Below are positions 11,782-13,569 of a stretch of 64,000 nt of DNA, piece by piece (within the stretch, counting starts at the first letter, position 1; every line of letters begins with the position of its first letter). Source of the DNA: Escherichia coli 042. Its GTDB lineage: Bacteria > Pseudomonadota > Gammaproteobacteria > Enterobacterales > Enterobacteriaceae. The stretch lies in NCBI RefSeq assembly GCF_000027125.1, contig NC_017626.1. One strand, 5' to 3'. Made by a program: the position numbers and the translations under genes. Below the pieces are notes generated by a model that was given only the letters and a program-made list of their open reading frames with translations, did no database searches and was not told the origin of the DNA.

Positions 11782-13569
11782 TTATGCAAAATCCTCAAGG
11801 TGACGACTGATACTGTTTTCACGGTAACAGGTCACCAGTAATTCACGGGTTGCCCGGGTGAACGCCACATAAAGCACCGGGATTACTTCAGACTCATCCG
11901 CTACACCAGAAGGAATGAAAGACGCATTGATAACCGCCACATACGGGAACTCCAGCCCCTTACTGCTCTGATATGTCAGTAAATGCACCACATCCTTACG
12001 TCGCGAGTATGCCTTCTTGCCTTCCCTGTCAAAACAGGTGGCAAAAGGCATCCCGCGTTGTGTCATAACGTCCTGCAATTGTTTCGCTGAATGCTCTGTC
12101 GGACACAGCACAGCCATATCACTCCAGTGACCGCACAGGGCATGGCACTTCTCCAGCCAGTCTGCAACCTGTCTGGCTTCATCACGTTCAGAAGCACAAT
12201 GCAGGATTTCCGGCTCTGTACCCTCTTCACCGCCTGCCTGTGGCTGAACAAGTGGTATTTCACGGTTCTGATGTTTTTCAAAATACTCGCGAGAGAATGC
12301 ATAAGCAAAGTGCAGAATGCGTTTCGGATTACGATAATTGACCGGCAGGACAGAAGTGCGTCCCTGCGCCTGAATCCCCACACTGGCCAGAGAAAAGTTC
12401 AGAGCCCGCTCCCGCCGATAAATGGACTGGGCATCATCGTACATCAGGAGCAGTGAACGGGATGCGTTATCAAACAGACGGGCAATCAGGGCCAGCCAGC
12501 GACTGTCAAAATCATGCCCTTCATCCACCAGTACAGCATCATATCCGGCGTCGGTGATTTTCCCGCTGTTCACAGCCTCTTCCAGTGTGCTGAAGCATTT
12601 CTCCGGGTAATCCTTTCTGTCAGCCGTCACCTGAATACCGTGGCGTTTTATCATTGAGGCACACCAGCTGTGAAAATGAGATACCGTAACCCGTGACGTC
12701 AGCCCTCTGACATCAATGCATTCCCGCAGATAACTGGCCAAAGTAATGTTGTAGCACAGCACCAGAATCTTTCCGGGCGTGGTTTCAGCCAGGTAAAGGC
12801 AACGGAATAAAAGAATCATGGTTTTTCCGGAGCCGGCCACACCATGAATGACACGATGCCCGTCACCAATATTTCTGGCCAGAATCTCCTGCTGAATATC
12901 CATGATTTTGATTTGTGAGTTCTGTTTCACGGTCACTTCAGGAAACAGATGGGCGCGCAGAATATCTCTCATCCGGGGTGTCACCCGGGTTCTGAATCCC
13001 GTGGTAAACATCCCGGCAATTTTTTGCCGGAATACCTCAGGTAAAACAGACTGCGTCATTTCATCCTGACAGATTGTCTGTGCTGAAGGAAAAATCTTTT
13101 CCACCGCATTCTCATCATTCCCTGTCAGTGCCTTCAGTTGCTGACGGGTAATGCGGGTGAACACCACACCATACGCCCAGGCCAGGTTCAGCCGCCCCTT
13201 ATACTGACCGTCATTCTGCCGTAAGCACGGGTCAGCAAGTAAGGCATTAACCGTATCACATGCATAACGACGAGCCTGTACCAGCGGATTTATTTCTGAT
13301 TTCAGAAGACCGTCGGTTTCCAGTGTAACCTGCTCCTGATTTGCTTTACGTAATGTGGATACAGTCCAGTCCTTGACCTCCAGAAATACCAGCCCGTTAT
13401 CCGGGTCAATAATGACAAAATCCGGATGTCGGTTTTTCCGTCCCACCGGGATATCGTACCAGACAAAGCAATCATCATTCAGAAAGCTCTCCAGTCGTGA
13501 AGCCACCCTCCTCTCCCCGGACGTCATTCTCTCCTCAGTGGACGCCGATACATTTATCAGTTTCGCCAT
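11782..13569 (-). CDS. NERD nuclease-like domain fused to SF1 (UvrD/PcrA-like) helicase; single-gene candidate defense protein (Nhi-like architecture)
   Basis: 595-aa ORF; N-terminal NERD-like segment (HPDFVIIDPDNGLVFLEVKDW), Walker A (GVAGSGKT), Walker B (VLVDEGHDF), C-terminal helicase-like region. Confidence 0.65.
   Translation of the reverse strand: MAKLINVSASTEERMTSGERRVASRLESFLNDDCFVWYDIPVGRKNRHPDFVIIDPDNGLVFLEVKDWTVSTLRKANQEQVTLETDGLLKSEINPLVQARRYACDTVNALLADPCLRQNDGQYKGRLNLAWAYGVVFTRITRQQLKALTGNDENAVEKIFPSAQTICQDEMTQSVLPEVFRQKIAGMFTTGFRTRVTPRMRDILRAHLFPEVTVKQNSQIKIMDIQQEILARNIGDGHRVIHGVAGSGKTMILLFRCLYLAETTPGKILVLCYNITLASYLRECIDVRGLTSRVTVSHFHSWCASMIKRHGIQVTADRKDYPEKCFSTLEEAVNSGKITDAGYDAVLVDEGHDFDSRWLALIARLFDNASRSLLLMYDDAQSIYRRERALNFSLASVGIQAQGRTSVLPVNYRNPKRILHFAYAFSREYFEKHQNREIPLVQPQAGGEEGTEPEILHCASERDEARQVADWLEKCHALCGHWSDMAVLCPTEHSAKQLQDVMTQRGMPFATCFDREGKKAYSRRKDVVHLLTYQSSKGLEFPYVAVINASFIPSGVADESEVIPVLYVAFTRATRELLVTCYRENSISRHLEDFA

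Follow-up and report, generated by a model that had tools for sequence, protein, structure and literature searches.

A 64,000-nucleotide stretch of the Escherichia coli 042 genome (contig NC_017626.1; hereafter the window) carries, on its minus strand, a gene for a 595-residue protein that joins an N-terminal NERD nuclease domain to a C-terminal UvrD/Rep-type helicase core. The best reading of this gene is a stand-alone nuclease-helicase that acts on foreign DNA, to which we give a probability of about 55%. This reading as a whole draws on the defence genes found near the gene in E. coli and near its homologue in Ralstonia, on membership of the PADLOC family C3a187, on copies carried by plasmids, and on purifying selection. 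The anti-phage or anti-plasmid role, already proposed in the initial annotation of the window, is one that we infer from genomic context, which lends good support in E. coli but little in distant homologues.

Domain architecture and predicted structure

The initial annotation had recognized a NERD-like nuclease segment joined to a UvrD-like helicase, and profile searches agreed with this description. Pfam NERD (PF08378, of the PD-(D/E)xK clan) covered residues 17-109, and the UvrD-helicase/AAA_19 and UvrD_C/UvrD_C_2 profiles matched over residues 226-583. The nuclease domain showed, besides the profile match, the E...D...ExK constellation within a restriction-endonuclease-like fold. In a family alignment with 60 relatives at 27-59% identity, the putative catalytic residues were well retained, with D50 present in 60/60, E64 in 57/60, K66 in 53/60 and E19 in 55/60 sequences. 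The same type of NERD site is required for defence in ZwsA, a protein of different architecture.

The region between nuclease and motor (residues 111-215) matched no Pfam family. It contains G134, D202, R205, F209 and P210, which occupy invariant columns in a 40-sequence N-terminal alignment. The motor that follows belongs to the UvrD/Rep-like superfamily 1A, as seen from the Walker A and DExx motifs, motifs III-VI and the UvrD_C and UvrD-helicase profiles, and all superfamily 1 (SF1) motifs were invariant or almost so in the 60-sequence alignment. It lacks the accessory domains 1B and 2B found in UvrD, and the Pfam model regions that would correspond to them are absent. Judged from its sequence, the protein shows an intact, conserved putative nuclease active site, and its reduced UvrD/Rep-type core has every SF1 ATPase/translocase motif.

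AlphaFold2 (AF2), supplied with the 60-sequence alignment, gave a confident full-length model of the single chain, with a predicted local distance difference test (pLDDT) score of 91.1 and a predicted template modelling score of 0.87. The closest fold matches of the motor were Rep and then AdnAB, AddAB and RecB. Those of the nuclease domain were Can2, type ISP restriction enzymes and Shedu SduA, and a likeness to Can1 was also seen. No solved structure had the same architecture, as the sequence and fold matches in the PDB covered the motor alone.

Reading frame and start codon

The open reading frame (ORF) list contains a frame of exactly 595 codons on the minus strand, as the initial annotation had it. 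The RefSeq entry WP_001529578.1, named '3'-5' exonuclease', is a 581-residue product that begins at M15 (window 13525-13569). When the nucleotide sequences of five loci were aligned (from three E. coli chromosomes, one E. coli plasmid and Cedecea), conservation set in exactly at the ATG at 13569, with unrelated sequence just upstream. M1 and A2 were conserved across the family in both the 60-relative and the 40-sequence N-terminal alignments, and a Shine-Dalgarno sequence, AAGGTG, precedes the ATG with a 5-nt spacer. For these three reasons the ATG at 13569 was preferred, and the sequence evidence makes the 595-residue start better supported than the RefSeq one. The region immediately upstream (13570..13665) is nearly identical to that of strain STEC306 and then diverges into an insertion sequence (IS) remnant of the IS3 family. 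A consensus scan of this region found no sigma-70-like promoter on the strand of the gene.

Family membership and relation to known systems

The protein matched the PADLOC model PDLC01087 ('C3a187, NERD+UvrD') with E = 4.5e-140 and 466 bits, residues 1-594 aligning with positions 1-556 of the 559 in the model. C3a187 was the only PADLOC model to match the whole protein; the next best models, of GajB, stood at about 1e-20. The name C3a187 goes back to Shah et al. (2018, RNA Biol, PMC6546367), whose cluster 187, with Dole_0738 as representative, is among the numerous protein clusters that adjoin type III CRISPR-cas cassettes; it has three occurrences, with subtypes A and B. The family is a neighbourhood candidate for a type III CRISPR accessory, and the protein described here, with the same two-domain architecture and homology over the full length, is by sequence a clear full-length member. 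In contrast to C3a187, which was defined by its adjacency to type III-A/B cas genes, the gene has no annotated cas genes in the surrounding 42 kb. At E <= 1e-30 the family comprises at least 570 clusters at 50% identity. Most of the relatives listed were about 600 residues long and matched over almost their full length, and a scan of species-representative genomes gave loci from Gamma-, Beta- and Alphaproteobacteria and from cyanobacteria.

The initial annotation had also called the protein Nhi-like. This held for the layout: like Nhi of Staphylococcus epidermidis (SERP2475), the protein is one chain of about 600 residues with the nuclease at the N-terminus and an SF1 helicase at the C-terminus. 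The proposed role is likewise similar, as Nhi is reported to degrade phage DNA replication intermediates. The comparison failed at the level of the family. Nhi and Nhi-like proteins consist of an N-terminal nuclease and a DUF2075 helicase (PF09848, now SLFN-g3_helicase; Bari et al. 2022; Millman et al. 2022). Their helicase is of the DUF2075/Viral_helicase1 type and their nuclease is HsdR-like, whereas the protein here combines a UvrD/Rep core with NERD. PF09848 matched it only in the P-loop region, with an i-E-value of 0.023, and reached E <= 0.001 in 13/60 relatives (best 2.1e-5), against 60/60 for UvrD_C. No Nhi model was found among the 21 PADLOC-DB families matched up to E = 1e-5, nor among those matching the N-terminal 216 residues, the presence of Nhi models in that library being unconfirmed. 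Membership of Nhi or Nhi-like was rejected because the helicase is UvrD-type and not of the DUF2075 type. The protein resembles Nhi in layout, and perhaps in function, while its sequence places it outside the Nhi family.

We consider it very improbable that the protein is a true Nhi or Nhi-like member, or that it is an accessory effector of type III CRISPR dependent on cas genes or on signalling by cyclic oligoadenylates. Such an identity would fit the nuclease-then-helicase order, the origin of the C3a187 model in type III neighbourhoods, and a nuclease fold like those of Can2 and Can1. However, the UvrD-type helicase, the profile scores given above and the lack of annotated cas genes all argue against it, and a Pfam search found neither a CARF nor a SAVED domain.

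Comparison with other nuclease-helicases gave partial likenesses. Relative to RecB, AddA and AdnAB, the protein has the reversed order (nuclease first) and half the size, and it lacks both the 1B/2B domains and the partner subunits. NCBIfam models for recB, addA and RecB-like proteins scored 20-32 bits against cut-offs of 650-860, which places it outside RecB/AddA. The UvrD, Rep and PcrA models scored 48-67 bits (cut-offs 911-1144), and the UvrD/Rep/PcrA/HelD equivalogs together 36-67 bits (cut-offs 419-1168), so that no housekeeping orthologue was indicated; no NCBIfam family exceeded its cut-off. The UG34 reverse transcriptase-associated NERD-helicase (PADLOC 'RTasNERD-Hel'; Mestre et al. 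2022) likewise has an N-terminal NERD and a C-terminal helicase. Its model matched the full-length protein at 1.5e-15 (best stretch 210-425) and the N-terminal 216 residues at 1.9e-5 (stretch 1-72), but this match is weak and partial, and no reverse transcriptase gene lies near the gene. GajB of Gabija is also a UvrD-like SF1 defence helicase, and many GajB models matched at 1e-20 to 1e-5; these matches were partial and the gene has no GajA-like neighbour, which sets it apart from Gabija. Hna and HmaA, single-gene defence proteins with an SF2 helicase and a C-terminal nuclease, follow the same logic of a helicase and a PD-(D/E)xK-type nuclease in one chain. With the vertebrate Schlafen 11/12, which have a DUF2075-type helicase, identity was 7-17%, a resemblance only. 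The DefensePredictor candidate DS-26 'NERD' (WP_054626965.1, 532 residues), listed in its source as an Upx-like nuclease, was set aside because it showed no resemblance by inspection of the unaligned sequences.

Distribution and selection in E. coli

The gene matched in 1,047 of 5,426 complete E. coli genomes (19%), and 614 of them (11%) had matches covering at least 80% of its length. It is therefore not the housekeeping helicase of all E. coli that the initial annotation had allowed for. The gene is accessory in E. coli and patchy in its distribution. In about 430 genomes, O157:H7 EDL933 among them, an IS66 element has truncated the gene in the pheV island OI-122, so that no more than its 5' 45% remains. 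In the EDL933 copy of OI-122 (L009 10000-10797), the NERD half adjoins an Ail/Lom (pagC-like) gene and a tssE pseudogene.

Alleles within E. coli diverged by up to 9% in DNA, with dS of 0.11-0.30 and dN/dS of 0.08-0.16. The low dN/dS shows that intact copies are under purifying selection, and together with this range of dS it indicates alleles that are old and exchanged, yet maintained.

Fifteen of the E. coli genome matches were on plasmids. Copies with 91-93% identity occurred on E. coli and Citrobacter plasmids, and protein-level matches in PLSDB comprised nine E. coli plasmids, all with full-length matches, and one Citrobacter plasmid, in three joined pieces. On the 168-kb plasmid pCUPSTF6_1_02 (L005 12001-13791), a copy with 91.5% identity lies by a DUF6710 gene and a RelE/ParE toxin-NadS pair. 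The gene is mobile, occurring both in chromosomal islands and on plasmids. A phage origin was not supported, as no full-length match was found in 50,697 phage records.

The type VI secretion locus and its variable slots

In strain STEC306 the gene forms the end of an intact type VI secretion system (T6SS) cluster, in the order tssM, tssA, a T6SS protein gene, tssF, tssG, tssJ, tssE, a small ORF, a GIY-YIG gene and the NERD/UvrD gene. The GIY-YIG protein, encoded directly upstream of NERD/UvrD, matched PD-Lambda-1 in PADLOC at 6.5e-88. A 101-residue ORF, tagA fragments, a small ORF, Zorya II, ibrA, ibrB and perC follow. The closest homologues outside E. coli, from Cedecea neteri (65% identity) and assembly GCA_025215155.1 (59%), both lie between tssE and an intact tagA-like gene in a T6SS cluster of this kind.

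The window holds a decayed version of this locus. About 100 nt upstream of the start codon, on the same strand, is an 80-residue fragment of an IS3-family transposase (13671-13913), the remnant that the initial annotation had placed beside the gene. It marks a deletion that took away the T6SS side of the locus. On the other side lie a frameshifted copy of the 101-residue gene, which comes after the nuclease-helicase gene in other E. coli strains, and a split tagA-like gene. When intact TagA-like proteins (L002, Cedecea) were used in tblastn, their residues 9-146 and 151-428 fell in different frames. The nuclease-helicase gene itself remained intact despite the decay of the flanking T6SS genes. 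The description of the gene as alone on the minus strand did not hold, since the next four frames downstream, at 11443-11716, 10089-11388, 9280-9987 and 7907-9139, are on the minus strand as well. The word solo is valid only in the sense that the immediate neighbours are pseudogenes and that the gene has no conserved partner elsewhere.

The 5' junctions among the 5,426 E. coli genomes had the IS3 remnant in 357 cases, a PD-Lambda-1-like gene in 138 and an Ail/Lom gene in 506. As the slot between tssE and tagA takes unrelated cargo, either the PD-Lambda-1-like or the Ail/Lom gene, it acts like a hot spot for insertions. In E. coli, the contents of the slots flanking the nuclease-helicase gene vary, and defence systems are frequent among them. 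In the window, a complete Shango system stands 6 kb from the gene, and in ECL27829 the neighbouring slots hold a Mokosh-like helicase and a type I restriction-modification system. Each of the three E. coli arrangements examined had the block ibrA-ibrB-perC unchanged beside the variable slots for defence systems. The 235-residue ORF at 9280-9987, which matched nothing in PADLOC or NCBIfam, sits in the slot taken by Zorya II in STEC306 and by the Mokosh-like helicase in ECL27829, and is therefore a candidate unknown defence gene.

The RfaH ops element and a possible role in type VI secretion

A perfect RfaH ops 12-mer, GGCGGTAGCGTG, lies on the strand of the gene. From its 3' end to the start codon downstream there are 567 nt, which include the IS3 remnant. 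This was the only exact match in the window, against 0.12 matches (exact or with one mismatch) expected from shuffles. The JUMPstart model RF01707 scored 21.3 bits at this site, below its gathering score of 35, and Rfam gave nothing in the window at the gathering threshold. A second ops-like site at 58144, with one mismatch and inside the lysine-tRNA ligase gene, was taken as chance. From its sequence and position, the ops element could drive read-through into the nuclease-helicase gene.

According to a 2025 preprint, the sci1 T6SS cluster of enteroaggregative E. coli has an RfaH ops element between EC042_4547 and EC042_4548; EC042_4547-4549 are accessory genes within sci1, and a reporter placed between EC042_4548 and EC042_4549 requires both RfaH and the ops elements of the cluster. 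The 12-mer was also found in ECL27829 (L010 17683-17694), upstream of remnants of contact-dependent inhibition toxins, a tssE pseudogene, the Ail/Lom gene and the NERD/UvrD gene. In the STEC306 cluster, no GGTAGNNT motif was present between tagA and tssE. Counted forward from tssA as EC042_4540, and with tagA as EC042_4550, EC042_4547 and EC042_4548 could be the GIY-YIG and NERD/UvrD pair.

These observations bear on the idea that the gene is a functional T6SS accessory, co-transcribed with the cluster and acting on DNA in contact-dependent killing. The synteny tssE-(variable)-NERD/UvrD-tagA, shared by STEC306, Cedecea neteri and GCA_025215155.1, would suit this idea, as would the RfaH- and ops-dependent sci1 reporter combined with the perfect ops element here. 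An orphan VgrG module 5 kb from the Ralstonia homologue would suit it too. We nevertheless regard a T6SS function as improbable. In the 357 genomes with the IS3 remnant, the upstream T6SS genes have been replaced, and here tagA is split too, yet the gene is intact and under purifying selection. The E. coli plasmid copy examined had no T6SS genes nearby, the tssE-tagA slot accepts unrelated cargo, and EC042_4548 is only tentatively identified with the nuclease-helicase gene. Among the loci from other species, 77/80 had no T6SS neighbours, such genes being found only in three enterobacterial loci, so that the family showed no consistent co-occurrence with T6SS core genes.

The chances also seem slim for a variant in which the gene is a long-standing passenger of the enterobacterial T6SS-1 cluster, with a fixed seat between tssE and tagA in three genera or more, transcribed together with the cluster by RfaH/ops antitermination, and with a job tied to T6SS firing. 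If this were true, the protein might, for example, destroy DNA, plasmids or induced prophage genomes set free by lysed prey before they become established in the attacker, and the ops element 567 nt upstream would keep the orphaned gene expressed.

Genomic context outside Enterobacterales

All-against-all clustering covered 1,285 ORFs from the flanks of 82 loci, namely the 80 related ones together with L002 and L004. No family of neighbours occurred in more than 6 of the 82 loci, and the lack of a conserved partner across the 80 loci from other species implied a single-gene system. A conserved small upstream partner was rejected, as the three small proteins encoded upstream in L002, L004 and L005 are unrelated.

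Among Ralstonia plasmid records, 112 matched a homologue of 40% identity, with a near-constant position in the R. solanacearum megaplasmids listed. At one locus (L092 707-13041), the homologue is followed by a PD-T4-6/MAD6-like Ser/Thr kinase gene and a gene for a NERD-less UvrD-like helicase; further on comes the VgrG module mentioned above, with a TaeI-like immunity gene. The arrangement may be a three-gene variant of the system. The Ralstonia locus has defence-like gene content and core-like conservation. One distant locus adjoins a restriction-modification module and an SNF2/PLD protein.

Several findings weigh against a defence role. None of ten same-strand immediate neighbours of distant homologues matched PADLOC at 1e-8, so a family-wide defence neighbourhood is unsupported outside Enterobacterales and Ralstonia. 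Three of these neighbours are plainly housekeeping genes (a heptosyltransferase, an FAD monooxygenase and an FKBP isomerase), and the other contexts sampled for distant homologues were mostly metabolic. The homologue is syntenic across several Bradyrhizobium species; with the constant Ralstonia position, this looks like a stable chromosomal gene rather than mobile defence. C3a187 has been linked to CRISPR through no more than three occurrences, and in the literature that could be searched we found no functional test of NERD+UvrD (C3a187) proteins. Finally, no mechanism for discriminating self from non-self is readable from the sequence.

Part of this evidence would suit the main rival, in which the protein is no immune protein but a miniature helicase-nuclease with an accessory part in DNA repair or recombination. 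Like AddAB, AdnAB and RecBCD, it would process broken ends, gaps or stalled forks in the DNA of its host. Behind Rep, the best fold matches of the motor include AdnAB, AddAB and RecB, all of them enzymes of end resection. The distant homologues lie among housekeeping genes, in one case near a uracil-DNA glycosylase gene, and the ten neighbours without PADLOC matches and the positions kept in the listed Ralstonia megaplasmids and in Bradyrhizobium fit the same picture. However, the E. coli gene is patchy, often pseudogenised and carried by plasmids in some cases, and its seat in E. coli is a hot spot of validated defence systems. The protein also lacks the 1B/2B domains and the partner subunit of the resection machines, and its NCBIfam repair-helicase scores are far below the cut-offs. 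We regard a repair role as unlikely.

Proposed mode of action

If the protein acts on foreign DNA, its motor would load on single-stranded DNA exposed on the invading molecule. Candidate substrates are 3' tails, gaps, intermediates of rolling-circle or recombination-dependent replication, and conjugative single-stranded DNA. ATP-driven translocation would proceed 3'->5', as in UvrD/Rep-family motors, and the strand would be threaded to the NERD nuclease, tethered at the N-terminus through the conserved bridge, and then cleaved. The enzyme would resemble a one-chain RecB/AddA with reversed domain order, and in practice it may work like Nhi or Hna. The outcome would be a block on the accumulation of phage or plasmid DNA. 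The host would most likely be spared in one of two ways. Activity might depend on free ends or replication intermediates that are protected in the host, or a phage protein, for instance an SSB, might switch the enzyme on, as has been reported for Nhi and Hna.

Features of the window

Table 1. Features of the nuclease-helicase gene and its surroundings (window positions; residue numbers from M1).
Feature	Position	Strand	Basis
NERD nuclease-UvrD-like helicase coding sequence, 595 residues; stop codon 11782-11784	11782..13569	-	ORF list, Pfam, PADLOC C3a187, AF2, dN/dS
NERD / PD-(D/E)xK nuclease domain, residues 1-110	13240..13569	-	Pfam NERD, residues 17-109, 2.6e-10
Putative nuclease active site: E19; D50; E64; K66	13513-13515; 13420-13422; 13378-13380; 13372-13374	-	
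Q98xxxY102, also part of the putative nuclease active site	13264-13278	-	60-sequence alignment
Alpha/beta region bridging nuclease and motor, residues 111-215	12925..13239	-	AF2 pLDDT 83-98
Minimal UvrD/Rep-type SF1 ATPase core, residues 216-595	11785..12924	-	Pfam, alignment
Motor motifs: Q-motif D224/Q227; Walker A GVAGSGKT, K249; motif II DEGHD, D349/E350	K249 12823-12825; D349/E350 12520-12525		
Further motor motifs: III Q381; IV R413; V K537/G538; VI T571/R572			
Upstream region with ribosome-binding site (AAGGTG)	13570..13665	-	Sequence, five-locus alignment
IS3-family transposase remnant (C-terminal integrase-core fragment)	13671..13931	-	ORF 13671-13913; RefSeq incomplete pseudogene (identical genome)
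Perfect RfaH ops 12-mer, within weak JUMPstart-like match 14136..14187	14136-14147	-	Pattern search
Frameshifted copy of conserved 101-residue gene	11443..11716	-	tblastn with STEC306 protein, two frames; RefSeq 'frameshifted'
Split tagA-like T6SS accessory gene (ImpA_N + VasL, two frames)	10089..11388	-	tblastn, annotation
235-residue ORF, about 34% GC, between tagA remnant and ibrA	9280-9987	-	
ibrA (PAPS-reductase-like), ibrB (ParB-like), perC-family regulator	6300-9139	-	
Complete Shango system	11-5835	+	PADLOC SngA (TerB-N) 8.6e-100, SngB (ATPase) 3.8e-186, SngC (helicase) 1.2e-277

Among the features beyond the gene itself, ibrA gave a weak BrxP match (2.6e-7). By matching to an identical genome, a microcin H47/colicin V export cluster and an island tail were placed within about 18000-29100 and about 41500-50200. 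The tail consists of a CbtA/YeeU toxin-antitoxin pair, antirestriction, RadC and YfjP GTPase genes, and ends at cadC. The whole island thus abuts cadC, which on the K-12 map is the pheU tRNA site.

Implications

The architecture is already catalogued, in a PADLOC model derived from the 2018 survey of CRISPR neighbourhoods, and a nuclease-helicase defence candidate will not surprise a specialist. The very small UvrD core, the conserved seat in a T6SS cluster and the ops element add interest. Since the tssE-tagA-ibrA stretch of the pheU-type island is a site where defence systems are swapped, searches for more defence genes of unknown type could usefully start there.

If the preferred reading of a nuclease-helicase against foreign DNA is true, it would explain why about one in nine complete E. 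coli genomes carry the gene and why O157:H7 retains a truncated relic in OI-122. The protein would be an unusually small nuclease-motor enzyme, of about 600 residues with a UvrD core devoid of 1B and 2B, and a family that PADLOC carries only as a CRISPR-neighbourhood candidate would gain a function. Restriction of phages or plasmids, if shown, would add to the defence catalogue a widespread single-gene system of at least 570 clusters at 50% identity.

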